A DNA stretch of 64,000 nt from an uncultured Bacillota bacterium (GTDB lineage: Bacteria > Bacillota > Clostridia > Christensenellales > Pumilibacteraceae): the NCBI GenBank assembly GCA_949294845.1, contig CASFJH010000047.1:8712-72711 (forward strand), written 5' to 3'. The first letter of the stretch is position 1. Each line of letters opens with the position of its first letter. The notes beneath the pieces are model-generated. The model searched no databases. It saw nothing but the letters and a program-made list of their open reading frames with translations, and was not told the DNA's origin. The position numbers and the translations under genes are program-made. This document shows, piece after piece, positions 23,897 through 64,000 of this stretch.

Positions 23897-23897
23897 A

Positions 23898-43588: not shown

Positions 43589-43623
43589 AACATTTCGCTC
43601 CCTGCCGGAAAGTTTTCTGAAAA

Positions 43624-43641: not shown

Positions 43642-43651
43642 AGTAAACTTA

Positions 43652-44549: not shown

Positions 44550-44551
44550 CG

Positions 44552-46543: not shown

Positions 46544-46596
46544 AAAATCCGGTAAAATATTATGCGCTGACCGGCCGGTCATTTGTATATGCCACT

Positions 46597-46625
46597 TAAA
46601 AACGCCTCTATAAGAGGCGTTTTTA
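46597..46625. terminator. Bidirectional rho-independent terminator
   Basis: AAAAACGCCTCT-ata-AGAGGCGTTTTT, lying between convergent genes. Confidence 0.75.
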
Positions 46626-46703
46626 AATATATTGCAAACCGCACAACGTTAAATTCAAATCTTTTTCACTCAGATGGCGACTGAAAAAATTTATAAAATC
46701 GGC

Positions 46704-47303: not shown

Positions 47304-47353
47304 AAATAGTTCCTCTTGTAAAATTCAATGCTCGCTTTCGATGTATCGCTTGA

Positions 47354-47599
47354 TTATCGCGAAAAGGTATTCGGACGCTCTATTATGCAGACGTTTTCTT
47401 CAGCAAGCTTAACGTAAGCGCCCATTCTCTTCAGCGCTTCGGTAAGAATACGATGACGCTCGTAAAAATTTCCTGCCTTTTTCAATCCCGATTCGGTAAA
47501 AGCGATTTTCCCACTGTTACGGTCAATTGTTAAATATCCCCTTTTCTCAAGAAGATTTATCGCTCGCGAAACACTTGATTTCGCATAATCCGGTACTTT
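47354..47599 (-). pseudogene. Remnant of a DtxR/MntR-family metalloregulator (no start codon; truncated at both ends)
   Basis: The minus-strand open frame, bounded by stops, reads KVPDYAKSSVSRAINLLEKRGYLTIDRNSGKIAFTESGLKKAGNFYERHRILTEALKRMGAYVKLAEENVCIIERPNTFSR*. This is the wHTH plus the start of the dimerisation helix of the DtxR family. The first roughly 25 aa, any start codon and the metal-site C-terminal part are missing. Confidence 0.6.
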
Positions 47600-47687
47600 T
47601 TAACCAATTATTCTTTTAATGTTCAACAAAATACAGAACTACACATATTACAGAAATAAAAATAGCAAAAATGCAAATGAAGCAATT

Positions 47688-47725
47688 CAGGACGTTGTCT
47701 TTAAATCAGGACGTCGTCTTTAAAA
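47688..47725. repeat. Tandem 19-bp direct repeat (2 copies, 2 mismatches)
   Basis: CAGGACGTTGTCTTTAAAT / CAGGACGTCGTCTTTAAAA. Confidence 0.85.
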
Positions 47726-47761
47726 AACGTTCTATTCTTTCTCCTTCACAATAATCGCTAA

Positions 47762-47812
47762 TAAAAAATCTTAAACCCACTCAATTTTATCATTGAATGG
47801 GTTTAAGATTTT
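47762..47812 (-). terminator. Long hairpin terminator immediately after tRNA-Leu
   Basis: 18-bp stem with one mismatch: ATCTTAAACCCACTCAAT/ATTGAATGGGTTTAAGAT. It has a T-run on the minus strand and an A-run on the other side. Confidence 0.75.
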
Positions 47813-47895
47813 TGGTGCGGAGGATGGGACTTGAACCCACACGGGATTACCACTAGCTCCTGAAACTAGCGCGTCTGCCATTCCGCCACCTCCGC
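47813..47895 (-). tRNA. tRNA-Leu (anticodon CAG), class II with a long variable arm and encoded CCA
   Basis: The reverse complement is GCGGAGGTGGCGGAATGGCAGACGCGCTAGTTTCAGGAGCTAGTGGTAATCCCGTGTGGGTTCAAGTCCCATCCTCCGCACCA. Acceptor stem GCGGAGG/CCTCCGC; anticodon stem CTAGT/GCTAG with loop TTCAGGA; T-loop GGTTCAAGTCC. Confidence 0.9.
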
Positions 47896-48037
47896 ATTCA
47901 AGACAGCTTAATCATTATACAATATAGGCGGATTTATGTCAACCGTTTAACGGATATTTCAGGCGGATTAACTGTAAATAAATTTAATTTTTACCGATTT
48001 CAGCAAGGTATAAACCATTAAATTAAAGCTTATAAAA

Positions 48038-48100
48038 ATTGTGTTATCACAATATTTTCACAATAATTTTATTGTCATTTTACGGCGTATGTGTTATAAT
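48038..48100 (+). promoter_or_regulatory. Promoter with an extended -10, overlapped by two ACAAT/ATTGT inverted repeats
   Basis: ATTGTG-ttat-CACAAT (48038..48053) and ACAAT-n6-ATTGT (48060..48075). -35 TTGTCA (48072..48077), 17-nt spacer ending TGT, -10 TATAAT (48095..48100). Followed by GAGG and ATG 48125. Confidence 0.5.
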
Positions 48101-48124
48101 GTTTAAGTAAATTGAGGTAGTATC

Positions 48125-51100
48125 ATGAAGCAATACGCAATTGGCTTGGACGTCGGATCCACAACAATTAAAACCGCTGTACTGGATAACGAAAACGCGG
48201 TTATATACTCCAGTTACGAAAGACATTATTCGGATATAAAGGCAACCCTCACTTCCGTATTGCGTCGGCTGCTGAAAAAATACGATAATTTTTCTCTTAT
48301 GGTTACCGGAAGCGGCGGCATTTCCGTTTCGGGGTGGCTCGGTATTCCGTTTATACAGGAAGTAATCGCAGGCGTGGAAGCCATCAAGCGCATTATTCCC
48401 GAAACGGACGTCGCCATAGAGTTGGGAGGCGAAGACGCTAAAATCACATACTTGACCGGAGGCATCGATCAGCGCATGAACGGAACTTGCGCAGGCGGAA
48501 CCGGCGCGTTTATCGATCAGATGGCAAGTCTGCTGGGAACAGACGCTAAAGGACTCGACGAGCTTGCGCGTGACGCAACGATCATTTACCCCATAGCTTC
48601 GAGGTGCGGCGTATTTGCCAAATCGGACATACAGCCGCTTATAAACGACGGTGCGAAGCCTGCCGATATAGCCGCGTCCGTTTTTCAGTCTGTAGTAAAC
48701 CAGACCATTTCCGGCCTCGCCTGCGGCAAACCGATCAAAGGCAACGTGGCGTTTCTCGGCGGACCGCTCCACTTTCTCCCCGAACTGGGAAAGCGTTTTA
48801 CCGAAACTCTCAAGCCTCAAAAAGCTATTTTTCCCGAAAATGCCGAGGTTTTCAATGCTATAGGCGCCGCGCTTACGGGAGAAAAAGTCTTTACTGCGGC
48901 GGAACTCGGCGCCAAGCTGGATGAGTTGTCGAAACTTACCGTCACCGAAGTCACACGCCTTCCGGCGCTGTTTTCCTCTGCGGAAGAGCTCGAACAATTC
49001 AGAGCGCGCCATGCAAAAACCAAGATACCGTTTGCGGACATTGCAACTCATAAGGGGCCTTGCTTTCTCGGCGTAGACGCAGGCTCGACGACTACAAAAG
49101 CCGCTCTGATAGATTCCGACGGCGGATTGCTGTACTCATGGTACGGTTCAAACAGCGGAGATCCGCTTGCGACGGTTACCGATATACTCAAAGAGATATA
49201 CTCGCTGTTGCCCGAAGGCGCTTACATAGGAAACAGCACGGTAACCGGTTACGGCGAAAACCTGATAAAGACGGCGCTAAATATCGACGCGGGCGAAATC
49301 GAGACAATGGCGCATCAGACCGCTTCAAACGAAATCCTGCCGGGCGTGGAGTTCGTTTTGGACAGAGGCGGACAGGACATGAAATGTCTGCGCATAAGAA
49401 ACGGCGTTATATACGATATATTGCTGAACGAAGCCTGTTCGTCGGGCTGCGGAAGCTTTATAGAGACTTTTGCCAAGGCGCTGGGGCTTACGGCAGAAGA
49501 ATTTGCGGAAAAAGGATTGGCCTCTTCTGCGCCGGTTGATCTCGGTTCGAGATGCACCGTATTTATGAACTCGCGTGTTAAACAGGCGCAGAAAGAAGGC
49601 GCGACCGTTGCGGATATTTCCGCCGGACTTGCATATTCTGTAGTCAAAAACGCGCTGTTTAAAGTAATCAAGTTGCGCGACAGCAGCGATATGGGCAATA
49701 AAATCATCGTTCAGGGCGGAACATTTCTCAACGAATCGGTTTTGCGCGCGTTCGAGTTGGTCTCCGGCCGCGAGGTAGTGCGCCCCGACAAAGCCGGCCT
49801 TATGGGAGCTTACGGATGCGCCATTCTCAGCCGCAACAGATATTCGGGCGGCAAAAGCGGCATAAAAACGCTAGACGAACTCAAAGGATTCTCAGTAAAG
49901 AAATACACGCGCCGATGCGAAAAATGCGGCAACCATTGTCTGCTTACCATTTCGGAGTTTTCGGACGGAAGAACATTTATAAGCAACAACCGCTGCGAGC
50001 GCGGAGGCAACAGCAGCGAAACCGCGGTTTCCAAAGCGCCGAATCTCTTTAAAGAGAAATATAACCGTTTATTCTCGTATTACAAACCGCTGCCTGCCGA
50101 GACCGCGCCGCGAGGCGTCGTAGGTATTCCGCGTGCGCTGAATATTTACGAGAACTATCCGTTCTGGTTTACTTTCTTTACCAAACTGGGTTACAGCGTC
50201 AAGCTTTCTCCGCGCTCGTCCCGTGCAATATATGATATGGGTATTTCCACAATGCCCTCCGAATCGGTTTGCTATCCGGCAAAACTGGTACACGGACATA
50301 TTACGGCGCTGGTTAATTCCGGAGTCAGCTTTATCTTCTATCCCTGTATCCCTTATGAGATGATTGAAGACGAGACTGCCAACAATCACTACAACTGCCC
50401 TATCGTTTCCACATATCCCGAAGTGATACGGCTGAATATGACCGAAGTTTTCGGCGACAAAGTTGTTTTCAAAGCGCCGTTTTTGCCTTATGCTAACCCG
50501 AGCCGTATGTACGAGCGGTTGTGCGAAGAGTTTCCCTCTATTCCGGCTAAAGAGATCAAAAGCGCCGTTGACGCTGCATACAAGGAGATCGACAAGTTTA
50601 AAAGCGACATAAGAAAACGCGGCGAGGAGGTCTGCGCCGAGCTCCGGAAATCGGGCGGACACGGCATTGTGCTGGCCGGACGGCCTTACCATATCGATCC
50701 CGAAATAAACCACGGTATTCCCGAGATGCTCTGTTCCTACGGCTTTGCGGTGCTTACCGAGGACAGCGTAGCGCACATGGCCCGTATACCTCACCCTATC
50801 CGCGTCGTAGACCAGTGGATGTATCATTCGAGGCTGTATTCAGCGGCAAATTTCGTAAGACGTACCGATTATCTCGACCTTATACAGCTCAATTCCTTCG
50901 GCTGCGGACTGGACGCAGTAACGACTGATCAGGTTCAGGAGCTGCTCGAAGAAGCGAATAAGCTTTACACCGTTCTTAAAATAGACGAAGTCAACAATCT
51001 AGGCGCAGCGCGAATAAGAGTGCGTTCGCTTATGGCCGTACTGGAAGAGCGCAAATCGAAGCAGATAAAAGCCGCTCCGGTTCCTCCGCCCAAATATCGC

Positions 51101-52330
51101 GTAGTGTTTACCAAAGCCATGAAAAAAGCGGATTATACCATAATCGCGCCGCAGATTTCTCCCATTCACCTTAAACTGCTCGAGGAATCCATAAACGCTC
51201 ACGGGTACAAGCTCGTTGTGCTGCCCGAAAGTCCGCGAGCTACCGAAGTGGGGCTTAAATACGTCAATAACGACGCCTGCTACCCTACGATACTTACCGT
51301 AGGACAGCTGATAGACGCGTTGCAGACAGGCAATTACGACCTCGACCATACCGCGGTAATAATGACTCAGACGGGCGGCGGCTGCAGAGCGACCAATTAT
51401 ATAGCTCTTATACGAAAAGCGCTTAAGCAGGCAAATATGCCGCAGGTGCCCGTTATTTCCTTGAGCTTTGCGGGAATCGAGAAAAACCCCGGGTTCAAGG
51501 TAACGCTCGGAATGTTAGTGGATATGCTGCGCGCGCTGATGTACGGAGATCTGCTGATGCGCTGTCTTTACCGCACGCGGCCATACGAAAAAGTAAAAGG
51601 CACGGCATGGGCTTTATATGAGAAATGGGACGAGAAACTGAGAGGCGAATTCAGAAAAGGCAAGCATAACATAAGGAAAAACGCGTTTGACATTGTCCGT
51701 GAATTCGACGCGATCGATGTTGAAGATACCGTAAAACCGCGCGTCGGAGTTGTCGGAGAGATACTTGTGAAATTTCATCCGGTAGCCAATAACAGGATCG
51801 TCAGCGTCATCGAGAGCGAAGGCGGCGAGGCGGTTGTACCCGACTTTCTTGATTTCTTTCTGTACGGTATGTATAATAACAATACCAAATACGAGCTGCT
51901 TGACGGATCGAAATTGAGTAAATTTGTCGGAAATCTTTCCATCGCGTTTGTGGAACATTACAGAAAGCCTTTCGCCGACGCGCTGAAAGGTACGAAATTC
52001 GGCGAACCGGCCGATATTTACGCTTTGGCCGACGCCGCGAAAAACGTTGTTTCTCCTGCCAATATGAGCGGAGAAGGCTGGTTCCTCACCGCAGAAATGC
52101 TCGAGCTTATGCATAACGGAGTTAATAATATCGTATGTGTTCAGCCGTTTGCCTGTCTTCCCAATCACGTTACCGGCAAGGGCGTTATGAAAGAGCTTAA
52201 ACGGCAGAACCCCCAAGCCAATATAGTAGCAGTCGATTACGATCCCGGCGCAAGCGAAGTCAATCAGATAAACCGTATCAAGCTTATGATGAGCGTCGCT
52301 TTTTCGAATCTTAATCACTCCGGACGATAA
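48125..52330 (+). CDS. Fused 2-hydroxyacyl-CoA dehydratase activase-like protein (two BcrAD/BadFG ATPase domains, a Cys-rich linker and a dehydratase-component-like C-terminal region)
   Basis: 1401 aa. It has two acetate/sugar-kinase-type ATPase starts, [16 protein letters not shown] and [16 protein letters not shown]. The linker reads [12 protein letters not shown]...NNRCERGG. The long C-terminal part has GGGCRATNY and [10 protein letters not shown] motifs typical of the DUF2229/HgdB-like region. Confidence 0.8.
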
Positions 52331-52331
52331 T

Positions 52332-52441
52332 GGCATAGCGCTTGCATATATTGAAGCGCGCCTGACGGTAATCGGCACAGCACTTGCAAATCTTGAGCGC
52401 GCCTCCGATAATCTGCATAGCGCTTACACAATATCAAAAGG
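52332..52441 (+). repeat. Tandem repeat of about 41 nt, 2.6 copies, in the 3' UTR of the activase-like gene
   Basis: GGCATAGCGCTTGCATATATTGAAGCGCGCCTGACGGTAATC / GGCACAGCACTTGCAAATCTTGAGCGCGCCTCCGATAATCT / GCATAGCGCTTACACAATATCAAAAGG. Unit 1 can fold as GCGCTT-n10-AAGCGC. Confidence 0.8.
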
Positions 52442-52471
52442 TCTGCAGTATCCGTGCAGACCTTTTTTTTT
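52440..52471 (+). terminator. Rho-independent terminator
   Basis: GGTCTGCA-gtatccg-TGCAGACC followed by TTTTTTTTT. Confidence 0.85.
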
Positions 52472-52490
52472 AAATTGCAAGCTTTGGGGA

Positions 52491-53210
52491 TTATACGGCG
52501 GGTACGGGCGGCTCATTAAGAAGCACCTCACTGTTCGTCCCGTAAAAAATGTCTTCGTGCCGCGAAATCATGCGGCAGAATTCTTCCATGCGATCCCAAT
52601 ATTCGGGCCTGTAGTCGAACTCGTAACTGTGCCCCCATATGTAAAATATCTTGGGCGTATCGGGTTTGAGCGATATAAATTCGTCTCCGAGGCTGAACAG
52701 TCTGTCAAATTCCATGTGGTGTACCGTAGGATTAAACCTTAGAAGATTACTCTGAAGATCGAAACTGTAAGACGAAACAATAGTTCGGGCATACCGTATG
52801 GGAGTACACCGACCTATTATTCCGGCAACGCGATCGTCGTTATTCTGCCCGCCGCACGGGTACGCCATTCCGCAAACGGGATATCCTGCCAGTTCTTCCA
52901 GATTGCGCCTGTCGCAATCCACCTGCCTTATTATTTCCTCTTCCTCCAACTCCGGCAATAACGGATGCGTAAGCGTGTGCGCGGCTACTTCGTGACCGCG
53001 GTATACCTCTCGTATCTCGTCTGCAGAAAACCGCGTATGGTCGAGATCGATGCTGTTCCGATGAATTTTTGATGTCTGTCCGAAAAGTCCGGAGTTGAGA
53101 TTGAACGTCGCCTTAAGTCCGTATTTGTCAAACATGGCTATCAGGCGTCTGTCCTGCACCACCCCGTCGTCGTAACTGAACGTTACCGCTTTTTTCAGAC
53201 CGTTGAACAT
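52491..53210 (-). CDS. Polysaccharide deacetylase (CE4 family)
   Basis: VTFSYDDGVVQD (TFDDG-type motif), AAHTLTHP (H-x-x-x-H), and an IWGHSYEF block. GGAGG RBS. Confidence 0.75.
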   Translation of the reverse strand: MFNGLKKAVTFSYDDGVVQDRRLIAMFDKYGLKATFNLNSGLFGQTSKIHRNSIDLDHTRFSADEIREVYRGHEVAAHTLTHPLLPELEEEEIIRQVDCDRRNLEELAGYPVCGMAYPCGGQNNDDRVAGIIGRCTPIRYARTIVSSYSFDLQSNLLRFNPTVHHMEFDRLFSLGDEFISLKPDTPKIFYIWGHSYEFDYRPEYWDRMEEFCRMISRHEDIFYGTNSEVLLNEPPVPAV

Positions 53211-53228
53211 TTTCCGCCTCCGTTTAAT

Positions 53229-54032
53229 TTACAGCGCGAGCCCGAGCAGGCGCGCGGCATTTTTATAAAAGATCTTATCCAGCACTTTACCGTCTTTGAC
53301 ACATTCGCGCATGAACTCCACGTCCTTTTTCTGACATTGCCACGGAGCGTCGGTCGCAAAAAGCAGCTTATCCGTATCGTGCTCGGCCAGAACGCGCTCG
53401 ATTTCGTACTTCGACAAAAAATCAAAGCCGAACGACGTGTCGAGATAGCAGTCCTTGCCTATAAGCAGTCTGAACATATCGTCCCACAGCCCCTGCGAGC
53501 CCATGTGCGCGCCGACAATCGGCGCACCGGGAAAAGCTTGTGCAACGTGCGCAAAACGCTCCGGATCGCAGTGCAGCGGCTCACCGAGCACGAGATCCTT
53601 GCCGCAATGAAAAAGTATTACCATGTCTGATCGGAGAATTTTTTCATAAAGCGGAAACATTCTTTCGTCGTCGGCAAAAAATTTCTGATAGTCAGGATGA
53701 AATTTGACGCCCTTTATGCCCGCCGCGGCAAGTCTGTCCACTTCGGCAAAGCTGTCCTCCAACTCAGGGTGTATCGAACCGAAAGGGACGACAAACGGGA
53801 CGTCCAAACACGATATTGCCCAGTCGTTGACTTTACGGTTCTGATGCGCGTTTGTGGCGATGTTCTGCATGACGGAAATATCTATTCCCGCCTCGTCCAT
53901 TGACGCTTTCAGGCCGGAAAGCGTCCCGTCATAATAAGGCGGGTAGTCTGGATTTTTAGACAGATTCGCCATGGCTTTAGGCGCGATCGCGTCGGAAAAA
54001 CAGTGCGTGTGGAAATCAATTATCATATACAT
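53229..54032 (-). CDS. Amidohydrolase-2 type metal-dependent TIM-barrel hydrolase
   Basis: MIIDFHTHCF (H-x-H metal motif), VKFHPDYQ, ILFHCG, and FATDAPW near the C-terminus. Confidence 0.65.
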   Translation of the reverse strand: MYMIIDFHTHCFSDAIAPKAMANLSKNPDYPPYYDGTLSGLKASMDEAGIDISVMQNIATNAHQNRKVNDWAISCLDVPFVVPFGSIHPELEDSFAEVDRLAAAGIKGVKFHPDYQKFFADDERMFPLYEKILRSDMVILFHCGKDLVLGEPLHCDPERFAHVAQAFPGAPIVGAHMGSQGLWDDMFRLLIGKDCYLDTSFGFDFLSKYEIERVLAEHDTDKLLFATDAPWQCQKKDVEFMRECVKDGKVLDKIFYKNAARLLGLAL

Positions 54033-54088
54033 ATTTTACAACTTTACATATACAGTGTCAAGAAAATCAGTTATTCAGTTCAATTTAT

Positions 54089-54118
54089 TTGACTAAAGCG
54101 CCGTATATATAGTATAAT
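54089..54118 (+). promoter_or_regulatory. SigA-type promoter for purA
   Basis: TTGACT (54089..54094), 18-nt spacer, TATAAT (54113..54118). Confidence 0.5.
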
Positions 54119-54150
54119 AAAAAGGTATTTCATTTTTTCGGAGGTTCGCT

Positions 54151-55422
54151 ATGAACACTTTGGCTCTTGTCGGCGCGCAATGGGGTGACGAAGGTAAAGG
54201 CAAGATTATAGATATTCTTTCCGAAAAAGCCGATATGGTAGTACGCGCTCAAGGCGGCAATAATGCCGGCCATACCGTCGTTACTGGCGGCGTGACCTAT
54301 AAGCTGCATTTAGTGCCCAGCGGCATTCTTTATCCCGAGACCGTATGCGTTATCGGCAACGGTACCGTGGTCGATCCGGCCGTTCTGCTGTCCGAGCTCG
54401 ACGACCTGTCGGGCAAAGGCGTAGACTGCTCGCATCTTAAGATAGACGCCAGAGCGCACGTCATACTGCCCTATCACATCGTACTTGACGAATTGAGCGA
54501 GGACGCAAGAGGCAAGTCCGACATCGGCACTACAAAAAAGGGTATCGGTCCCTGTTACATGGATAAGGCTGAGCGTATAGGAATCCGTATGTGCGATCTT
54601 ATTCAGCCGGATACCTTTGCCGAAAAGCTCAAAAGAAACGTTTCGATAAAAAACAATCTCATAACGAAGATGTACGGCGGTTCGCCGCTCAGTTACGAAG
54701 ATATACTGGAAAAATATTCGGGCTACGCCGAAAAGCTCAAGCCCTATGTCTGCGATACGTCGGTTCTCATTTACGACGCCATTAAAGCGGATAAAAACGT
54801 GCTGTTTGAAGGAGCGCAGGGTGCGTTGCTCGATCTTGACGTGGGAACTTATCCCTATGTGACCAGCTCGCACCCTATAAGCGGCGGCTTCTGCGTGGGC
54901 GCCGGTATCGGACCTACGCTCATAAAGGATTGCCTCGGCATAGCGAAAGCCTATACTACGCGGGTAGGCAAAGGGCCTTTCCCTACCGAGCTTGACGACG
55001 AAACAGGCGAACGTATACGCACAATGGGCGCGGAATACGGGACCACTACCGGCCGCCCTCGCCGTTGCGGCTGGCTTGACGCGGTGATACTGCGCTTTTC
55101 CGTAAGAGTAAACGGTCTGACGGGTATAGCAATGAATAAGCTCGATACGTTATGCGGGCTCGAAACGGTTAAAATATGCGTTGCTTACAGAAAGAACGGA
55201 TTGCTGCTCCGTAATTTTCCTTCGGATATCTCCGAACTGGCAGAATGCGAACCGGTATATACAGAGCTCCCCGGCTGGAAAGGCGATATCTCGGGCGCCA
55301 GAAAATTCTCCGATCTGCCCGAAGCCGCGCGTCAATACATCAGGACGGTCGAGAAAGAGATCGACTGCAAAATCTCAATGGTAGGCGTCGGCCCCGACAG
55401 AGATCAGAACTTCAATATTTGA
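54151..55422 (+). CDS. purA: Adenylosuccinate synthase
   Basis: GAQWGDEGKGK P-loop, GTTKKGIGP, and the TTGRPRRCGW region. Confidence 0.95.
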   Translation: MNTLALVGAQWGDEGKGKIIDILSEKADMVVRAQGGNNAGHTVVTGGVTYKLHLVPSGILYPETVCVIGNGTVVDPAVLLSELDDLSGKGVDCSHLKIDARAHVILPYHIVLDELSEDARGKSDIGTTKKGIGPCYMDKAERIGIRMCDLIQPDTFAEKLKRNVSIKNNLITKMYGGSPLSYEDILEKYSGYAEKLKPYVCDTSVLIYDAIKADKNVLFEGAQGALLDLDVGTYPYVTSSHPISGGFCVGAGIGPTLIKDCLGIAKAYTTRVGKGPFPTELDDETGERIRTMGAEYGTTTGRPRRCGWLDAVILRFSVRVNGLTGIAMNKLDTLCGLETVKICVAYRKNGLLLRNFPSDISELAECEPVYTELPGWKGDISGARKFSDLPEAARQYIRTVEKEIDCKISMVGVGPDRDQNFNI

Positions 55423-55456
55423 AGCGCGCAAAAGCTTAAATTTGATTTTTAAACTT

Positions 55457-55490
55457 AAACCCCCGTTCAGAAGTGTATGAACGGGGGTTT
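55457..55490. terminator. Bidirectional hairpin between purA and the RnlA-like gene
   Basis: AAACCCCCGTTCA-gaagtgta-TGAACGGGGGTTT, a 13-bp perfect stem. Confidence 0.75.
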
Positions 55491-55539
55491 AATATACCCG
55501 GAATATTGAGCCGGCCGACTCTGAGCGCGACAATCGGAC

Positions 55540-57090
55540 TTATTTAATGCCGAACCCGATCTCCTTGAGCTTTTTGCAATTGTAATTTATCGTATCGAGC
55601 AAGTGATCGAATATCGCAACGGCTTCCTTTTTATCGGAGATCATTCTGGGCGCAGACTCGTCCGAGTTGTCCGAATGAGTGTAAAAATTCCGTCTTGAAA
55701 AATACTCGGTATACAGAGCCGACATCACTTCGGCGTAAATTACGCTTTTAATCCGCTTCTTATACCCGCTTTTAAGCTCGTACCTGCCTTCGGGCTTATC
55801 GAAAGCCTGGCCGATCATCTTTACCTCAATCCCCTGCGCCTTCTGAAGATCGCTTATAAACTTTTCGAGCCCCCTGTAAGGCGGAGTGAGCAGCGACGAG
55901 TAATCGGTAAGCTTCGTCTCATTATTATAAATATCTATAAGGCCGATAGTAATATCGATTTTAGACTGCTCGGACAAAAATTCGTAAGCGTCGGGCAGGC
56001 GCTTGCGCAGCATCTTCTGCAAGCTTCCGGCGCTTTTGTCCTCGCCGGCAATCGCTATATAATTCTTTACGGCTGAATTATAATCGTCGCCGCGGCTCAA
56101 CTGAACCTGTATGTCGCCGAAAAGACTGCTGCGCTTACCCTGAAGCTGAATGACGCCGCTTGACGGCATATACCTGAGGTTGGCTTTGTTGCCTTTATTG
56201 TCCAGAATAGTATACGCGACCACGCTGTCTTTACCGCTTCCGGCAGTCTTTTTCTGCCGAAGCTTCATACCGCGGATCTTTCTCAGCCCTGATAAAACTG
56301 ATTCAAAGCGCTGAGACGTTACGTTCTTGACGGTAAAATCGGCTGCTCCCGAAAGCGCGTCTGCTTTACCTGCCGCGTCGCTGCTCTTTTCGGCGCCTGC
56401 CACCGGCGGCTGTTTCGTAGCTTTGCCGGCAGCGCCTTTTTTGACCGCACTCTTTTCAGCCGCGTTCTTTTCGGCAAAAGCTGACTTTACGCTCTTATTC
56501 GCCGCGTCATTATCATGCCGCTTTTCTGCTGAATGTTTACCGTCAGCTTTATCGGCGCTTGTTACGTCGGCAGCTGCGCTCTTGTTTACGCTATCCGTTT
56601 TGCTTCGGCTGCGAGCGGACTGTCCAGTCTTAGCTTTATTGCTTTTTTGTTCGGCAGGCTTTGTGTTCAGCATAGCGACCGATTCGCCATGCGGCTTTAA
56701 AGCTTTAATGTCGGTTTTGTCGGGAACGGCATTACGCGCGTCTTTATTTAAAGATATTGCACGCCCCTTTTCGGCGCCGCTCTTATCCGATACGGAATCT
56801 TTGTCCGGCTGCCTCTTAGCCGCCTGCGCCGAGGCGCCGACAGTCTTCAGCAGCTTATCAAGGCACTCGAAAATTCTTTCGGACGCGGTAAGCGTAAGAA
56901 TTCCGGCTTTTGTATCGAACACTACGCTGAGCTTTTCGCCGGACAGCAAATATTTGTATACAACCTGATGGCATCTGTCGTTTGCCGGCCTGAAATCTTT
57001 CAGTTCGCAACCTGCCATTTTACCCAGATCGGATACGAATCTCTCAGCCGAAGTATGTTCACAACGGATATCTTTGCGTAAATTCTCCAA
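55540..57090 (-). CDS. RnlA/LsoA-like HEPN ribonuclease toxin homologue with a long Lys/Ala/Ser-rich insertion
   Basis: 516 aa. There are two copies of an RnlA-N/RNase-HIII-N-like fold: LSVVFDTKAGILTLTAS and ANLRYMPSSGVIQLQGKRS. The C-terminal helical domain carries LLTPPYRGLEKF, AFDKP, the R-x4-H motif RNFYTH (55675..55695) and PRMISD. A low-complexity linker spans aa 86-255. Confidence 0.65.
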   Translation of the reverse strand: MENLRKDIRCEHTSAERFVSDLGKMAGCELKDFRPANDRCHQVVYKYLLSGEKLSVVFDTKAGILTLTASERIFECLDKLLKTVGASAQAAKRQPDKDSVSDKSGAEKGRAISLNKDARNAVPDKTDIKALKPHGESVAMLNTKPAEQKSNKAKTGQSARSRSKTDSVNKSAAADVTSADKADGKHSAEKRHDNDAANKSVKSAFAEKNAAEKSAVKKGAAGKATKQPPVAGAEKSSDAAGKADALSGAADFTVKNVTSQRFESVLSGLRKIRGMKLRQKKTAGSGKDSVVAYTILDNKGNKANLRYMPSSGVIQLQGKRSSLFGDIQVQLSRGDDYNSAVKNYIAIAGEDKSAGSLQKMLRKRLPDAYEFLSEQSKIDITIGLIDIYNNETKLTDYSSLLTPPYRGLEKFISDLQKAQGIEVKMIGQAFDKPEGRYELKSGYKKRIKSVIYAEVMSALYTEYFSRRNFYTHSDNSDESAPRMISDKKEAVAIFDHLLDTINYNCKKLKEIGFGIK

Positions 57091-57120
57091 AATATAAAAC
57101 CACCTGCGTTTTTAAGCCTT

Positions 57121-57157
57121 TAAAAGCAAAAGGCGACTCAAAACCAGAGCCGCCTTT
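57121..57157 (-). terminator. Rho-independent terminator after the surface-protein gene
   Basis: On the minus strand: AAAGGCGGCTC-tggtttt-GAGTCGCCTTT followed by TGCTTTT. Confidence 0.65.
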
Positions 57158-57171
57158 GTACTTTATCTGAA

Positions 57172-60100
57172 TTATTTCTTTTCGTCCTTCGGCTTAATCT
57201 TTCTGTATCTTACCAGATAGACTATGACGCCGACGATCAGAACAATACCGACTATAATCAGCACGGTGCTGATGGCGGTAAGCGAAACGCTGCTGCCGCT
57301 AGCCTGAGCCGTTACAGTTATGGAATACTTCTGCGTGGAAGTATTGCCGTTTTCATCGGTAACCTCGTAGGTTACGGTATACGTTCCGCTCTTAGACAGG
57401 GTGATCGTAGAGCCGCTGTTCTCACGGTTGGCATACGTCGTACCTGTTCCGCTTACAGTGGCTACTTCCTCTCCGCTGGGATCGACAAGCGTCTTGGTGT
57501 AAGTGAAATCGCCAACGTTCTCGCCCTCGGAGGCAACAGCGGTAATCTTATTGAATTTGAACTCGCTGTTGATCTTGTATTTGGTCTGCTGAGTCTCGGT
57601 AAGACTGAAGTCGGGAGCAACTACGTCGCCTACGTTGATCGTAAAGCTGAGCGCGTCGGCGCTTACTCCGCGGTACGAAGCGGTAACCGTCACAGTGTAC
57701 TGCCCGTCAGATTCGGGAACAAAGGTATAACCGGCAAGCTGTCCGCCGCTGACAAGGATATCGTCGCCGTTTTCGTCGACTTCGGTCAACTCGATATTGT
57801 TTCCGTCCTTGTCGCTGACAGCTACGTCAGGCGTGACGTTTCCGTGCTCGGCAACGCCGATGAACAGAGGCAGATTTACGGTGTCATTGACTTTGGAATA
57901 AGTCGGAACGAGACCGAGCGCCTCGATAACCGGCTTATCTTCTCCCGTAACGGAAATATTGTAAGTCTCGGCTTTTTCGGAATATACTTCGTCGAGAGCG
58001 GCATTTATAATATAGTCTCTGAAATGATAGGTGCCTGCGGTGAGAGCGGTAAACTCATTGTTCATAACCGACATACGACCGCCAGTGACTCTGTGTACTA
58101 CATAATATCCGTCAACAGGTTCTCCGGTAACTTTATCGGTTACCTCGGTTTTTCTGAAAGCATAGGTTTCGTAAACGCTGCCGGTTGTAGGAATCTTTGA
58201 AGCGGAGAAGTCGATATCGCCGGAATCGTCGGATACTACGGTAATATTGAATACGGTAGCGCTGGATACGTCTGCCAGATTGAAAGCGCGGACAACCAGT
58301 TTATAAGTGCCGGCCTTTTCAGGCGTGAAAGAAATGTTGCGGATGACTATTTTGCCGTCATCGGAGTTATTATAGAAAGTCTCGATCTGTACGCCGCCGG
58401 AAAGCTCGTCGCCGTCGGGATTAACGACGTACACTTCAAATCCGGTATACTTATAATTTGCTTTGGTCGCCGAAATCTCTACGGTACCGCTCAGCACGAC
58501 GGCATTTTTCGCCACATACTCGTCAGCCGGAGCGGCAAGAGTATTGGTTACGTCAAGCGTCTGTCCGCTGAGAGAGTCGGGCGTAACAACCGCGACGGTA
58601 TATGTCTCGGATTCCTTAGCCTGTCCCACGCTGTCGGTCGTCTTGACTTTAAGCTCGAGCTCGGTGTTGAGCAACAGCTTGTCGCCGTTGTCAAATTCAA
58701 GATAATGCTTGCCGTTGTCGCTCTTGATATCGGCTACCTCACCTCCGTCAACCGATACCGAGGTAACGTATCCCTCGCTCTCGGCGGCGTCGGAAACGAT
58801 TGTATATTCAGTGTGGAGACGCGAAGTTTCGCTGTCGGCAACCGTTACGGAAGGAACGGTGAAAGTCTCCTGCGATCCGCCGACGACAATATACTCGGGA
58901 GCGTCGTTAACCTTAGCGGACGAAGGATAGTTAACGTCGGTATAAGTGTTGGATACCTCTATCGTATATTTCTTGGTAACACGGTTGCCGCTTGCGTCGC
59001 GGGCGACATATTCTACGTTATAGGAGCCGGTTTTGGTCGCGGTATTGCTGCCAACCTTATTGAAGTCGAACTTAAGATCCTTAAAAGCTACGGCTTCGGT
59101 ATCGTATGTGGACTCCGAACCGGTAAAGGTTTCTTCTTCGTCAAGGATATTGTCGTATTCTACAACGGTGTTGCCCTTGCTGTCGCTGATCTCGAAGCTG
59201 ACGGTCAACCCTTCCGTACCGGCATTGTCAACGACCTCGGGTATGGGGAAGCTGATCGTAGCGTCGTCTGCCTTAACGGCGGTATCGTCGTCGGCAGATT
59301 CGGCTTTCTTTACCGTAAGGCCCCACTTTTCGGGAATTTGCCAATCGTCTATATCATTGATGACGGGCGCCGAAGTATCGGAAACATCGATTTCGTACTC
59401 GTGACGCGCCGACTGATTGCCGGAGTCGTCGGTTGCTATATACGTTACTTTGTACTGTCCTTTCTCGGTAGGATAGAAGCTCATCACCTTGTCGTTATCG
59501 AATGCCACGGCGGTATCTTTGACCGAAACGGCAAAACCGTTATCGTCGAGCTCAACTTCCTTTACCGGCTCGCCGGCGAAAGTAACCGTAATATCTACTT
59601 TAACATTCTGATCGAAATCATCGGTAGTAGTTGCGACCGGCAGGCTTACGGACTTATTGATATTGCCGGTTCTGGGAACGTTTGAAACGCTAAGCGTAGG
59701 AGCCGAGGTGTCTTCGAAGGTGTCCTGAACTCTGACGGTGAAATCTTTTGTGTAAAGTTTGCTGCCGCCGCCGAGATAAGCGTAATACTGTATCGTAAGA
59801 ACGCCCGACTGGCTAGCGGTGTACTTTGCGGCCGTATCGCCCGACACTACCACGTCGGCGCTTCCGCCTGCGCTGAAGCGCGCCTTCACTTCCGCGCTGT
59901 CGTCAACCACGTTTCCGTCCTCGTCGTAATAAACGAGCTTAGCGCCGGGGAGCGTGATTTCGCTGCCTTTTTTGATGTAGGTAGGAATATCCGCGCCGTT
60001 TCCGTCGACTTTTATGGAATAATCGTTTTCGGTATAAGAATATACGCTGAAATCGTAACTCTCATCGCCCTGCGTATATGTGACCGTATAAGTGCCGACT

Positions 60101-60372
60101 TCCGAAGCGGTAACCGTGCCGGGAACCGCCGAAGGCGTTACGTCCTTGCCGCTGGGCGCTTTAACCGTCACCGTAGCGGGCGACGAAGCGGAAATATCGA
60201 AAGTGCCGCCGTATTTTACTCTGCGCGCTATCTTAACGTTTTCGAACACGTCCGAAGCGGCGGGAGCAGTGCCTAATGCAAATGCCGAAAACGACAGACT
60301 GCCTATTACCATAGCCGCCGACAGCGCGACAGCCAATAACGTCAGCCAAATGCTTTTGAGTTTCTTCATCAA
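57172..60372 (-). CDS. Large surface protein with multiple Ig-like domains, a signal peptide and a C-terminal TM anchor
   Basis: 1066 aa. Signal peptide MMKKLKSIWLTLLAVALSAAMVIGSLSFSAFALG. The domain-end signature Y-x-V-x-Y-x-A-x-D-x-S-G-N is repeated (YKVTYIATDDSGNQ, YNVEYVARDASGNR, YTVTYEVTDENGNT). The C-terminus AISTVLIIVGIVLIVGVIVYLVRYRKIKPKDEKK is a TM anchor. No LPXTG motif. AGGAG RBS. Confidence 0.8.
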   Translation of the reverse strand: MMKKLKSIWLTLLAVALSAAMVIGSLSFSAFALGTAPAASDVFENVKIARRVKYGGTFDISASSPATVTVKAPSGKDVTPSAVPGTVTASEVGTYTVTYTQGDESYDFSVYSYTENDYSIKVDGNGADIPTYIKKGSEITLPGAKLVYYDEDGNVVDDSAEVKARFSAGGSADVVVSGDTAAKYTASQSGVLTIQYYAYLGGGSKLYTKDFTVRVQDTFEDTSAPTLSVSNVPRTGNINKSVSLPVATTTDDFDQNVKVDITVTFAGEPVKEVELDDNGFAVSVKDTAVAFDNDKVMSFYPTEKGQYKVTYIATDDSGNQSARHEYEIDVSDTSAPVINDIDDWQIPEKWGLTVKKAESADDDTAVKADDATISFPIPEVVDNAGTEGLTVSFEISDSKGNTVVEYDNILDEEETFTGSESTYDTEAVAFKDLKFDFNKVGSNTATKTGSYNVEYVARDASGNRVTKKYTIEVSNTYTDVNYPSSAKVNDAPEYIVVGGSQETFTVPSVTVADSETSRLHTEYTIVSDAAESEGYVTSVSVDGGEVADIKSDNGKHYLEFDNGDKLLLNTELELKVKTTDSVGQAKESETYTVAVVTPDSLSGQTLDVTNTLAAPADEYVAKNAVVLSGTVEISATKANYKYTGFEVYVVNPDGDELSGGVQIETFYNNSDDGKIVIRNISFTPEKAGTYKLVVRAFNLADVSSATVFNITVVSDDSGDIDFSASKIPTTGSVYETYAFRKTEVTDKVTGEPVDGYYVVHRVTGGRMSVMNNEFTALTAGTYHFRDYIINAALDEVYSEKAETYNISVTGEDKPVIEALGLVPTYSKVNDTVNLPLFIGVAEHGNVTPDVAVSDKDGNNIELTEVDENGDDILVSGGQLAGYTFVPESDGQYTVTVTASYRGVSADALSFTINVGDVVAPDFSLTETQQTKYKINSEFKFNKITAVASEGENVGDFTYTKTLVDPSGEEVATVSGTGTTYANRENSGSTITLSKSGTYTVTYEVTDENGNTSTQKYSITVTAQASGSSVSLTAISTVLIIVGIVLIVGVIVYLVRYRKIKPKDEKK

Positions 60373-60529
60373 CCGTATACTCCTGTTGGGAAAAATTTAT
60401 ACTGTAACAGTGCAATTATACAATTTAACCGTAACTTTGTCAAACGAAAAAGGCTTCAATTTAAGGATTTTTTGCCAATCGCGTTTCAAAGTTATTATTT
60501 TACGCTTTGCTGGAAAATATTCCCTGTTT

Positions 60530-61813
60530 TTAAAGCACCCTGATAAGCGAATCGAGCGACTTTACGGCGTCCGAGCGGGATATGATGTCAAGCGACTTGC
60601 GCACGGCGTCCTCCGTTGTAAGATGCGTAAAGAATACTACCGGCGCATAACCGTCCGCGTCGTCCCCGTGCTGCATTGCCTTATTTATGCTTACGCCGTT
60701 ATCGCCGAGTATGCCGGTTATTTTTCCTAAAACTCCCGGCTTGTCCATCAGCTTGAACGACAGGTAATACCTGGACGAGAAATTGCTCTTGACGACGATG
60801 CCTTCCTCCAGCCGGCCGTTGTTATCAAAGTCGCTGTAAGAGTGCCGAGAAGCCTGCTCAGCACAAACGACGATGTCGGACACTATCGCGCTGCCCGTAG
60901 GACGCGCGCCGGCGCCGCGGCCGTATAGCATGATGTCGTCAACGAAATCGCCCTTTAAAAATACCGCGTTAAAAGCGTCGTTAACGCTCGCAAGCGGATG
61001 GCTGTTCGGAACGAACGTGGGATGAACCCGCGCTTCTATTTCGTTTCCGCTGCGCTTGCCTATCGCCAGTAGCTTAAGCGTATATCCCATTTCTTTGCCG
61101 ACGGCGATATCTTCCGCCGTAATTTTCGTTATGCCTTCACGGTAAATGGACGTATACGGGATACATGTATGGAACGCAAGCGAGCTGAGGATACTGAGCT
61201 TGTACATGGCGTCGTATCCCTCGACGTCGGCGGTAGGATTGAATTCGGCATATCCGAGCTGCTGCGCCTCCTTGAGCGCGGCTTCGTATGTCAGCCCTTC
61301 CTTGCTCATTTTGGTAAGAATGTAATTCGTTGTGCCGTTGATGATGCCGAGAATCTCGGTTATATTGTTGGCCTGCATACTGTCGGTGAGCGTGCGGATA
61401 ATGGGAACGCCGCCCACGCAGCTTGCTTCGTAATAGAGGCCGGCGCCCGTCTTTTTAGCCGCCGCCTCAAGCTCGTAACCGCATTTCGAAATAAGCTCCT
61501 TATTGGCGGTCACAACGCTCTTGCCTGCGGCCAGAACGCGCAGGATAAAACTGCGGGCGGGTTCTACTCCGCCCATGGTTTCCACAACAATCGATATTTC
61601 GGGATCGGTCACGATAGCTTCCAGATCCGTGCAGGCAAGAGAAGCGTCGATTCCTCTGGCAGTCACGTTTTCCACGGCGCGGTCGAGTATCTTTTTGACC
61701 GTAATATCCAGCCCGCGCGTTTTCTTTATAAGCTCGCGGTTTGTTGTCAGGATTTCGTAAGTTCCGCCGCCGACGGTGCCTATCCCCATAATTGCAATTT
61801 TGACTTTTTTCAT
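60530..61813 (-). CDS. hom: Homoserine dehydrogenase with a C-terminal ACT domain
   Basis: 427 aa. MKKVKIAIMGIGTVGGG is a Rossmann motif; the central catalytic domain includes the NGTTNYILT region. Confidence 0.88.
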   Translation of the reverse strand: MKKVKIAIMGIGTVGGGTYEILTTNRELIKKTRGLDITVKKILDRAVENVTARGIDASLACTDLEAIVTDPEISIVVETMGGVEPARSFILRVLAAGKSVVTANKELISKCGYELEAAAKKTGAGLYYEASCVGGVPIIRTLTDSMQANNITEILGIINGTTNYILTKMSKEGLTYEAALKEAQQLGYAEFNPTADVEGYDAMYKLSILSSLAFHTCIPYTSIYREGITKITAEDIAVGKEMGYTLKLLAIGKRSGNEIEARVHPTFVPNSHPLASVNDAFNAVFLKGDFVDDIMLYGRGAGARPTGSAIVSDIVVCAEQASRHSYSDFDNNGRLEEGIVVKSNFSSRYYLSFKLMDKPGVLGKITGILGDNGVSINKAMQHGDDADGYAPVVFFTHLTTEDAVRKSLDIISRSDAVKSLDSLIRVL

Positions 61814-61823
61814 AAGCTCTCCT

Positions 61824-62588
61824 TTATCTGCGGTTAAGATTGTACAGAATATTGAGTCCTCTCAATGTAAGCGTTCTGTCAACAACGTCTATTACCGAAC
61901 TGTTTTTCGTCACGATTTCGCTTAATCCGCCGGTAGCCACCACCTTGGCTGCGCCCTGCTCCTTTTTAAATCTTTCGACCATATATTCGACCATACCTAT
62001 AAAGCCGTAAATGATACCCGACTGCATATTGGTAATCGTCGTTTTGCCAAGCACTTCGGGCGGCGCGACCAGCTCTATCTTGGGAAGTTTTGCAGTCGCA
62101 GACGTGAGCGCGTCCATGCTCGTCTTAAGTCCGAAAGAAATAGCTCCGCCCAGAAATTCGCCTTTTTCGTTGATATAGTTGAACGTCGTCGCCGTGCCGC
62201 AATCTATAACTATTACCGGACCGCCGTAAGTATGATATGCTGCCACCGAATTGACTATCCGGTCCGCTCCCACTTCCTTGGGATTGTCATACCTGATATT
62301 GATGCCGGTCTTAAGCCCTGCGCCTACTACCAACGGTTTTGCATTGAAGTAAAAATTCGATATATGCTCGAAAGTGTAGTTGAGATTAGGATTGACGCTG
62401 GACATTATCACACCGTCGATGCTCTTGCAAGGAATCCCGTTGGATTCTAACAGATCGCGCATGGTAAGCCCGTATTCGTCGCTGGTCTTGCTGGACGACG
62501 AGGCAAGCCTCAAGCTGTACACCAGCTTATCGCCGTCGAATACTCCGCATTTTATATTCGTGTTGCCTATATCGATAGTAAGATTCAT
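61824..62588 (-). CDS. coaX: Type III pantothenate kinase
   Basis: MNLTIDIGNTNIKCGVF and the GADRIVN and IVIDCGTATT motifs. Confidence 0.9.
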   Translation of the reverse strand: MNLTIDIGNTNIKCGVFDGDKLVYSLRLASSSSKTSDEYGLTMRDLLESNGIPCKSIDGVIMSSVNPNLNYTFEHISNFYFNAKPLVVGAGLKTGINIRYDNPKEVGADRIVNSVAAYHTYGGPVIVIDCGTATTFNYINEKGEFLGGAISFGLKTSMDALTSATAKLPKIELVAPPEVLGKTTITNMQSGIIYGFIGMVEYMVERFKKEQGAAKVVATGGLSEIVTKNSSVIDVVDRTLTLRGLNILYNLNRR

Positions 62589-63232
62589 AACGATTCCTCT
62601 TCCGGCTCTTTATTGTTTTCCTCCCGTGCATGGGCGCCGTTTTCAGTCTGCAAATACTGCTTCGGACTGATCCTGAGCGCGCGTCTCACCGGCAGCACCA
62701 CCAACGGCACCAGCACGGTAGTTATAACCGCTTCGGGAAGGGCGTTTGCAAGGATAAGCACTTTAAGAACCTGGCCGGTAAAAATCTGCCCGCCGAACAA
62801 CGTCATGGCCGACAGAGTCGCCACAGTGTTAATGACCGCGCCAGAAAATCCGGCCGCGCTCACCGCCGCGTATTCGCGCGTCTTTACGTTGCGCCGCCGC
62901 AAACAGAACCTTACAAGCCGGTAACTGCCGAGTGCCGCAGCTCCTATAAAGAGCCGCGGAAGTATCGATATCAGCGGGTTGATAAACGCTTCGGACGTGG
63001 CGCTTGGCATAATGACCGCGACCAGAAAGCTCGATATGCCGAACGCGGCTCCGCACGATAACGTAATCCACGGATTGTCCTTTATCATTCCGAAAGAGAC
63101 CGTTACCGTCAAAGTTATTATGGCGAAGCTGACCGGCAGATATGGCGACAGATATCTGTCGAGCACCATGCTGACGAAAACCAACGCCGCCAGCATTGCG
63201 AGCGTAACTGCATTTTTTGATTTACTTGTCAT
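62585..63232 (-). CDS. ECF-transporter S component (possibly the pantothenate-specific PanT, given the coupling to coaX)
   Basis: 215 aa with about 6 TM segments. ATGA-type overlap with coaX. The substrate assignment rests on gene context only. Confidence 0.5.
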   Translation of the reverse strand: MTSKSKNAVTLAMLAALVFVSMVLDRYLSPYLPVSFAIITLTVTVSFGMIKDNPWITLSCGAAFGISSFLVAVIMPSATSEAFINPLISILPRLFIGAAALGSYRLVRFCLRRRNVKTREYAAVSAAGFSGAVINTVATLSAMTLFGGQIFTGQVLKVLILANALPEAVITTVLVPLVVLPVRRALRISPKQYLQTENGAHAREENNKEPEEESL

Positions 63233-63489
63233 ACGAACTCCTACTGGGCGTACCTTAAAGGCTTGCCCGTAAAAACGTTTTTTTATACGCCGGTTCGGTT
63301 CCGGTTGCGGATACCGACCGATTTATAACGTTATACGATATACGGCATTATTATACCATAATTTTGCATAATCCGCAACCGTTTTATTAAGGTATATAAA
63401 AACTTATGCGCCGTATGTACCGTATCTTATACAGTCAGCTCGCCCGTCATTGCTAAGACAAAAAGATTACCGTATTCGCGTCACGCAGC

Positions 63490-63540
63490 TTTTACCCTTA
63501 TTTGCTTAAATAAATTTTTACCCTTATATCCTTAAATAAA
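63490..63540. repeat. Tandem 25-nt direct repeat (2 copies, 3 mismatches, 1-nt gap)
   Basis: TTTTACCCTTATTTGCTTAAATAAA (63490..63514) / TTTTACCCTTATATCCTTAAATAAA (63516..63540). Confidence 0.85.
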
Positions 63541-63576
63541 TATACGGTTAAGCACTGTTTGCCCGCGCCTGTCATA

Positions 63577-63609
63577 TAAAAAATTTCCCGCGCCTTTCGG
63601 CACGGGAAA
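63577..63609 (-). terminator. Rho-independent terminator after the Cys-rich gene
   Basis: On the minus strand: TTTCCCGTGCC-gaaa-GGCGCGGGAAA followed by TTTTTT. Confidence 0.8.
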
Positions 63610-63630
63610 CCGGTTGAAGATTAAGTACGT

Positions 63631-63828
63631 TTACTTGCAGCAAGCGTCTCTTCCGCCACCGCAGCAGCAGCTGAGCAGTAAGTACAGAAGGATAAGATCG
63701 CAGCAGTCGCAACCGCCTTTCCTGTCGTATCCGCAGCCGCAGTTATTGTTGCAGGAATTGCCGCATCCGCAGCAGCAGAGCAGAATAAGAATCAGAAACA
63801 TATCGTTTCCGCATCCGCCGTTAAACAC
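63631..63828 (-). CDS. Small cysteine-rich protein (16 Cys in 65 aa) with two hydrophobic Leu/Ile stretches
   Basis: GTG start 9 nt after AGGAGG. Sequence: MFNGGCGNDMFLILILLCCCGCGNSCNNNCGCGYDRKGGCDCCDLILLYLLLSCCCGGGRDACCK. A terminator follows directly. Confidence 0.6.
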   Translation of the reverse strand: MFNGGCGNDMFLILILLCCCGCGNSCNNNCGCGYDRKGGCDCCDLILLYLLLSCCCGGGRDACCK

Positions 63829-64000
63829 AGTTCGTTTACCTCCTTGATGAATTCAGATACTTCTGTTATTGCGATGGACGGAGAGGCTCGGCCGCAGCCC
63901 GGCTCCTTCCACCGCGTCAGGCGCGGTACCCGCCTTCTTTTGTGACTTTTCTTTTGAAAACGCGTTATAACAGATATATCTAATTCCATAGTATGAGTAA

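Follow-up and report, generated by a model that had tools for sequence, protein, structure and literature searches.

The stretch of DNA analyzed here, called the window below, is a whole 64-kb stretch (1..64000) of contig CASFJH010000047.1 from an uncultured Bacillota bacterium, and all coordinates refer to it. Its minus strand carries, between a gene for a surface-anchored protein and purA, a gene for a protein of 516 amino acids (aa) that belongs, by each sequence and structure criterion of the family that was applied, to the RnlA/LsoA (RNase LS) HEPN ribonucleases. The open reading frame (ORF) runs from a TTG start codon (57090..57088) to a stop codon at 55540..55542. A preliminary description had taken it for an orphan RnlA/LsoA-like toxin gene that sits among housekeeping genes, is transcribed on its own and lacks an adjacent antitoxin. 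The housekeeping context was confirmed, as purA and hom were identified with Pfam (Table 1) and the adjoining 30 kb was found to encode only metabolic and transport proteins; no integrase or defence genes were found within those 30 kb.

Family membership, domain layout and active site

The Pfam model RnlA-toxin_DBD (PF19034) matched aa 357-473 of the protein at 36.8 bits, against a cutoff of 27 (E 5.7e-9), over 120 of the 125 profile positions, and it matched all 39 aligned homologues as well. In a Foldseek comparison with the PDB the ten best matches were to RnlA or LsoA only (E 3.8e-13 to 1.4e-9, probability 1.00), and the 11th reached only E 0.04. A search of the PDB with the single sequence found nothing, and LsoA (5hy3_A) was reached only with a profile built from the family, which matched it at E 1.1e-8 across the second TBP-like domain (TBP2) and the HEPN domain. 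Both a profile search and a structural comparison with E. coli RnlA and LsoA had been named in the preliminary description as ways of checking its assignment, and both bore it out. The best match among predicted viral structures (BFVD) was a phage-encoded 'RNaseLS-like protein', and scans of the protein with NCBIfam, PADLOC and PHROGs gave no significant match. Family membership was judged from sequence and predicted structure, and we infer the RNase activity, its substrates, the role of the linker described below and the mode of control.

An AlphaFold2 model, built from the alignment of the 39 homologues, contained three folded parts with a predicted local distance difference test (pLDDT) score of mostly 85-97. 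The first (aa 4-92) has a beta-alpha-beta4-alpha topology, the second (aa 250-332) has the identical topology, and the third (aa 337-510) is all-helical. The same order of TBP-like, TBP-like and HEPN domains was evident from Foldseek, with E values against E. coli RnlA down to 3.8e-13, so that the three folded parts of the RnlA architecture had been read correctly beforehand. Profiles made from the sub-alignments of the two TBP-like domains were weakly related to each other (hhalign E 1.3e-4, 66 columns in register). In E. coli RnlA the N-terminal TBP-like domain is required for substrate binding (PMC8266594), and for RNase LS proteins in which the HEPN domain is fused to a TBP-like domain, targeting of RNA-DNA hybrids has been proposed (Anantharaman et al. 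2013, PMC3710099).

Kinship with the N-terminal domain of RNase HIII had also been suggested. The TBP-like domain of RNase HIII has the beta-alpha-beta4-alpha fold class in common with the protein described here, and to this extent the suggestion was supported. It was not confirmed at the sequence level, where a G-x-L-x-L-Q-G signature had been invoked: the RNase HIII domain model (DUF3378) gave no Pfam match at E values up to 10. Weak Foldseek matches went to TBP-like folds. Unlike RNase HIII, the RnlA-like protein is without an RNase H catalytic domain.

The residues that form the active site of RnlA were found in register. In the alignment with LsoA (PDB 5HY3, with T4 Dmd), the only PDB sequence that the family profile reached, R-G-L-E fell on R-A-I-E and R-N-F-Y-x-H on R-H-G-L-F-H, which places R406, E409, R467 and H472 on R255, E258, R318 and H323 of RnlA. 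Each of these four RnlA residues is essential for RNA cleavage (PMC8266594). All four were invariant across the 39 homologues, which share only 30-56% identity; this includes R467 and H472, whose conservation had been proposed as a test. The motifs quoted in the preliminary description, AFDKP and PRMISD among them, are present in the ORF, and an 'xRMIxD'-type segment follows the catalytic His as in RnlA, including that of Bacillus. The RNFYTH motif is likewise present, but its codons occupy 55692..55675, the range given earlier (55675..55695) having added one Arg codon. From these intact catalytic residues the protein can be predicted to be catalytically competent as an endoribonuclease.

For comparison, E. 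coli RnlA (RNase LS; PDB 4I8O, 6Y2P-6Y2S, 7AEX) is the toxin of the RnlA-RnlB type II toxin-antitoxin (TA) system, which acts against T4. Identity to it was only about 11-20%, and the protein described here differs from it in a basic disordered linker of 70-319 aa (the range in the homologues) between the TBP-like domains and in having no RnlB downstream. It also lies in a fixed housekeeping synteny block, usually just ahead of pyrG, as opposed to an accessory TA or defence operon. LsoA is plasmid-borne, is paired with LsoB and has no linker, whereas the subfamily to which the protein described here belongs is chromosomal and solitary.

A basic disordered linker and a distinct subfamily

Between the two TBP-like domains, aa 94-248 of the model had pLDDT values below 50. 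That an insertion splits the two N-terminal folds was thereby confirmed, with a length of about 157 aa (56344..56814) rather than the 170 or so proposed earlier. Its composition is 20% A, 17% K, 12% S and 9% D, with a net charge of +11 and an isoelectric point (pI) of 9.8, and it is moderately basic (K+R 20%, D+E 13%). The likeness to histone H1 and AlgP that had been drawn from this composition is a loose analogy: the linker is only moderately basic and has no Lys/Ala/Pro repeat tail. Tandem Repeats Finder returned a single trivial match of 9 nucleotides (nt) in 2.4 copies, which lay in the TBP2-coding part; the insertion is therefore of biased composition, not repetitive. On the opposite strand, an antisense ORF of 213 aa, Ala/Leu/Ser/Phe-rich in translation, faces the linker-coding stretch, and is most likely a by-product of biased codon content and no gene.

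A survey of the insertion among homologues, as had been recommended, found a linker between TBP1 and TBP2 in all 39 sequences, making it a hallmark of the family. Its length was 70-319 aa, hardly any of its sequence was conserved, and it was basic in 38 of the 39 (pI 9.2-10.6). Fifteen of the 39 linkers, all from one subclade, contained RGRP AT-hook cores, with one or two KRKRGRPPK-type cores each, and one homologue reached the Pfam AT_hook model (E 1.2e-4). The linker in the window contained no RGRP core, no AT-hook and no repeats. Linkers of the subclade (P0042, P0052, P0054, P0058, P0063, P0069, P0071, P0076 and P0085; alignment A1, columns ~100-600) also shared short motifs, namely the KRKRGRPPK AT-hook cores (often two), STDEIYPPQ, ISFG(S/D)E(D/E)D and VKRSTVPAQG, which look like short linear binding motifs. 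Autoinhibition by the insertion, one of the control mechanisms put forward previously, is unlikely because the linker varies in length, is almost without conserved sequence and carries a charge of the same sign as the RNA-binding domains that it would mask.

In a large protein database 95 close relatives were found, 310-683 aa in length and with few exceptions from metagenome bins of Clostridia or Bacillota. Two homologues were named 'type II toxin-antitoxin system RnlA family toxin' by PGAP, and the others 'hypothetical protein'. An exhaustive profile search of 1.84 billion representatives yielded about 90 clusters at E<=1e-30, the full-length ones scoring at least 176 bits, while canonical RnlA proteins of about 350 aa formed a separate population at 55-85 bits. 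On this separation of scores, at least 176 bits within the group and at most 85 bits to canonical RnlA, the linker-bearing proteins are a distinct subfamily of RnlA/LsoA. Among the papers that could be searched, none described a solitary, linker-bearing, syntenic RnlA subfamily. The enzyme family is a known one; the departures from it are the basic disordered insertion, the lack of RnlB and the vertical inheritance, probably as part of the core genome.

Inheritance, gene neighbourhood and the missing antitoxin

In a scan of 185,579 species, each represented by one genome, 104 species genomes encoded a relative of the RnlA-like gene. The locus counts given below are based on the 80 loci kept from these 104 matches, which come from 80 different assemblies, and the gene was single-copy in at least 80 distinct species assemblies. 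Carrier genomes were named as Clostridia, Pumilibacteraceae or Christensenella(ceae) bins and came from mammalian, bird and termite guts; a cultured carrier is Pumilibacter muris CLA-AA-M08 (locus L019). Pairwise identity of the TBP2-HEPN half tracked that of purA (Spearman rho 0.78) much as hom (homoserine dehydrogenase) did (0.80), and over the same species pairs the median identity was 0.52 for TBP2-HEPN, compared with 0.60 for hom and 0.655 for purA. These data fit a gene that has descended vertically under strong purifying selection.

Judged from one genome per species, the gene did not behave as an accessory or mobile gene. Its synteny was kept in at least 66 of the 80 loci, its neighbours are metabolic, and no match was found in 50,697 phage records or in the IMG/VR viral contigs. 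PHROG and PADLOC had no match to the family, and in the plasmid collection the sole match was a distant, canonical RnlA of 367 aa from Bacillus sp. BR3, with no member of the subfamily. The idea that this is a single-gene anti-phage or stress module was weakened by the vertical inheritance, the fixed synteny across about 100 species, the link to pyrG described next, the divergence at the pace of purA and the absence from mobile collections.

The recurring gene order was hom, a surface protein, the RnlA-like gene and pyrG, with purA a few kb further on. The surface protein (~1,100 aa) was encoded directly upstream on the same strand in 66-70 of the 80 loci, preceded by hom. In the window it has 1,066 aa, with a signal peptide, Ig-like/HYR/filamin-type repeats and a C-terminal membrane anchor. 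The surface protein evolves fast (25-44% identity), and only about 12 residues (YRKIKPKDEKK) follow its C-terminal hydrophobic stretch. On the other side, pyrG (CTP synthase, confirmed with Pfam) was directly downstream on the same strand in 47-51 of the 80 loci; such loci include L001, L003, L004, L006, L019, L020 and about 45 others. The gap between the two genes had a median of 38 nt and was at most 70 nt in 35 cases, and a terminator-like hairpin was present in only four gaps, all of at least 197 nt. Since the short gaps are nearly all without a terminator, the RnlA-like gene is likely to be co-transcribed with pyrG, an essential housekeeping gene, in most species.

The window departs from this arrangement. 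No pyrG was found anywhere in the 64 kb, and the gene is gone from this position both here and in the nearest relative (L002). The earlier claim of a monocistronic gene therefore holds for the window and its closest relative, but not for most orthologous loci, where pyrG lies within tens of bases. Because pyrG was lost in these two loci, the monocistronic, hairpin-flanked layout of the window is, as judged from the gene orders, a derived local state.

Strong hairpins on both sides of the gene had been noted previously, and both were found again. The stem of the upstream one (57129..57157), which has a U-tract and the appearance of an intrinsic terminator of the surface-protein gene, had a folding energy of -22.1 kcal/mol (z -4.4), and the downstream one had -24.5 kcal/mol (z -5.6); each was equalled by at most 1 of 200 shuffles. 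The downstream hairpin is probably a bidirectional terminator, which a simple terminator scan omitted because its U-tracts are interrupted. A terminator-like hairpin after the surface-protein gene was seen in 54 of 57 orthologous loci, compared with 0.6 expected in shuffles. On the minus strand, a promoter scan found no sigma-70-like site in the stretch from the upstream terminator to the start codon, and the gene may be transcribed by read-through or from a promoter within the 3' end of the upstream gene.

The start codon was ATG in 72 of 75 orthologues, so the TTG of the copy in the window is unusual. A weak start codon as a safety device of the whole family was considered and ruled out on the same count.

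Elsewhere in the window, a plus-strand gene of 1,401 codons encodes a protein in which two ATPase modules of the BadF/BadG/BcrA/BcrD type are fused to a DUF2229 'CoA enzyme activase' domain and which by its domain content is a large radical-enzyme activase-like protein. A tRNA gene was the sole Rfam match in the window at the gathering threshold.

Table 1. Coordinates and basis of the features in the window
Feature	Position	Strand	Basis or remark
RnlA/LsoA-family gene, 516 aa	55540..57090	-	ORF reading; Pfam PF19034 E 5.7e-9; Foldseek; 95 homologues
N-terminal TBP-like domain (TBP1/NTD), aa 1-92	56815..57090	-	AlphaFold2 beta-alpha-beta4-alpha, pLDDT ~89-97
Disordered basic low-complexity linker, aa 93-249	56344..56814	-	AlphaFold2 pLDDT and composition
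Second TBP-like domain (TBP2/NRD), aa 250-335	56086..56343	-	AlphaFold2; hhalign; aligns to LsoA from residue 91
C-terminal HEPN ribonuclease domain (the Dmd-binding domain of RnlA), aa 336-516	55543..56085	-	PF19034; Foldseek; family profile
R406-G-L-E409, equivalent to RnlA R255/E258	55864..55875	-	LsoA alignment; R406 and E409 invariant in 39 sequences
HEPN Rx4H motif R467-N-F-Y-T-H472, equivalent to RnlA R318/H323	55675..55692	-	Codons read; LsoA alignment
Shine-Dalgarno-like AGGTGG, 9 nt ahead of the TTG start	57100..57105	-	Direct sequence reading
Intrinsic-terminator-like hairpin and U-tract, end of surface-protein gene	57120..57157	-	Folding; terminator scan
13-15-bp perfect hairpin between the convergent RnlA-like and purA genes	55457..55490	.	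Folding; reading
purA	54151..55422		Pfam
hom	60530..61813		Pfam
Surface protein, 1,066 aa	57172..60372	-	
Antisense ORF, 213 aa	56327..56968	+	Most likely no gene
Predicted radical-enzyme activase-like protein, 1,401 aa	48125..52330	+	
tRNA gene	47816..47895	-	Rfam

The absence of an adjacent antitoxin was confirmed. The intergenic gaps are 81 nt upstream and 117 nt downstream of the gene, and an antitoxin-sized ORF fits in neither. A survey of homologous neighbourhoods for a small partner, also proposed beforehand, found none that was conserved when the flanking ORFs of the 80 loci were clustered. As a control, a locus on a Bacillus sp. BR3 plasmid (NZ_CP152438.1, 646241..650000; L081) was used, in which a canonical RnlA of 367 aa is followed by an annotated RnlB 25 nt downstream. 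This RnlA, from the same phylum, detected the gene in the window at E 4.9e-10, while with its RnlB as query the 64-kb window and the 80 loci (~1 Mb) yielded no match below E 1.4.

Directly upstream of RnlA-RnlB in the control locus, and on one strand with them, are genes for a TPR protein and for ribonuclease HIII (rnhC), so that RNase HIII and RnlA, which share a TBP-like domain, are linked in the genome as well. At a single other locus (L075, ~4100..4460, minus strand) an ORF of 121 aa starting MQTAKMDQTIKRGDIFYADLSPVVG lies convergent with the RnlA-like gene and is unrelated to it; its product may resemble toxins of the MazF/PemK type.

Possible roles of the solitary RnlA-like protein

The reading that we favour, and hold to be somewhat probable, is that the protein is a domesticated, nucleic-acid-tethered endoribonuclease of the RNase LS type, controlled intrinsically rather than by RnlB. 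Its single copy, fixed position, link to pyrG, divergence at the pace of purA and absence from mobile elements suggest that the gene has been absorbed into the core genome. It would be fixed in the core chromosome of one gut Clostridia lineage (Pumilibacteraceae/Christensenellales-like), where it would act as a cellular RNase and not as half of a TA pair. By homology with E. coli RnlA, two HEPN domains would pair in the canonical way, which would join the Rx4H motifs (R467/H472) and R406/E409 in a metal-independent RNA-cleaving site, and the two TBP-like domains would provide substrate binding. The basic linker may tether or concentrate the enzyme on nucleic acid, whether RNA, the nucleoid or RNA-DNA hybrids, and the AT-hook cores of one subclade would fit such tethering. 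An equilibrium between resting and active dimers has been documented for RnlA (PMC8266594), and an equilibrium of this type, together with the level of expression, could keep the activity safe without a co-encoded RnlB. In the window, expression would be modest, given the TTG start and a position behind a terminator without a recognisable promoter.

Several points weigh against domestication. The RnlA/LsoA proteins that have been characterised are all toxins of phage defence that an antitoxin keeps in check (PMC3710099, PMC8266594). Conserved synteny reflects vertical descent, not function, and a defence gene can be fixed too. The linkage to pyrG is missing in the window, and the operon argument is drawn from its relatives. 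The identity correlations use non-independent pairs, carry no P value and are descriptive, and the genome collection contains one genome per species, so that the counts are of species and core status is putative. Finally, antitoxins of the RnlB type diverge fast, and a trans-encoded or unrelated neutraliser may lie elsewhere in the genome.

The strongest alternative, which is nevertheless rather unlikely, is that the gene encodes a solitary RnlA-type toxin that serves as a defence or abortive-infection effector, latent through autoinhibition of the resting dimer, activated by a phage cue and fixed at one site in the lineage. The characterised members of the family, RnlA and LsoA, are all anti-phage toxins (PMC3710099; PMC8266594), the catalytic residues are intact here, and the best structural match in BFVD is phage-encoded. 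An inactive resting state is inherent in RnlA itself, and E. coli over-expressing RnlA showed only a longer lag time (PMC8266594); a latent form free of antitoxin is therefore conceivable. The genomic record speaks against this reading: the gene is a single copy in one syntenic block in at least 80 species, its divergence tracks purA, and it lies tightly upstream of pyrG in most species. There are no defence or mobile genes nearby and no PADLOC match, the subfamily is absent from the phage, plasmid and viral collections, and the conservation of the TBP2-HEPN half falls only modestly short of that of homoserine dehydrogenase, unlike that of fast-turnover defence genes.

It is doubtful that the protein is the toxin of a split or non-canonical TA system whose neutraliser is encoded elsewhere or is an unrecognised element, such as a small RNA or a protein of another kind. 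The two genes of a TA pair nearly always lie side by side, since selection acts on the pair, which counts against such an arrangement. The family is normally paired with RnlB/LsoB, as in the Bacillus control with RnlB 25 nt after RnlA, PGAP gave two of the homologues the name of a TA toxin, and sequence searches are insensitive to fast-evolving antitoxins. Against this, an RnlB-like sequence was found neither in the window nor in the ~1 Mb of orthologous loci, no small ORF is conserved on either side in the 80 loci, and Rfam yielded only tRNA in the window.

Two further roles have very little probability. One is a functional pair with the upstream Ig-repeat surface-anchored protein, for instance with a sensor in the envelope acting on an RNase in the cytoplasm. 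In 66-70 of the 80 loci the two genes are neighbours with the same orientation, but the terminator-like hairpin that separates them in nearly all orthologous loci, the retention of hom, pyrG and purA in the same block, which means that the adjacency may be plain ancestral synteny, and the few residues beyond the hydrophobic stretch of the surface protein all argue against it. The other, a non-catalytic nucleic-acid-binding or nucleoid-associated protein on a retained RnlA scaffold, would suit the basic linker, the AT-hook cores of the subclade and the two TBP-like domains, and non-catalytic HEPN binders exist (PMC3710099), yet invariance of the four RnlA catalytic residues at 30-56% identity is hard to explain without catalysis.

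Domestication may have gone further than the favoured reading supposes, though we regard this as speculative and improbable. An order-level lineage of gut Clostridia could have turned a HEPN toxin into a principal cellular endoribonuclease, with the linker as a tether or scaffold on the nucleoid, nascent transcripts or R-loops. The enzyme would then be a functional counterpart of RNase E or RNase Y built on HEPN domains, without an antitoxin and often co-expressed with CTP synthase. The C-terminal half of RNase E and the N-terminal region of RNase Y are long, fast-evolving, charged and disordered regions on a catalytic RNase core. The analogy is one of function only, as their folds and catalytic chemistry are unrelated to those of the RnlA-like protein, and it does not extend to partner binding or condensates.

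RnlA and LsoA are textbook antitoxin-dependent phage-defence toxins, and here the same machinery is found antitoxin-free at a fixed housekeeping site in about 100 species. If the protein is indeed domesticated, bacteria would offer a clear example of a nuclease from a conflict system that was taken into cellular RNA metabolism, in parallel with the HEPN domains of the eukaryotic proteins Las1, Ire1 and RNase L, and the protein would supply a missing piece of RNA decay or processing in a poorly studied, abundant gut lineage. If it is instead a latent solo toxin, it would show how intrinsic means suffice to restrain an enzyme of the RnlA type. The cultured Pumilibacter muris CLA-AA-M08 makes both readings testable.

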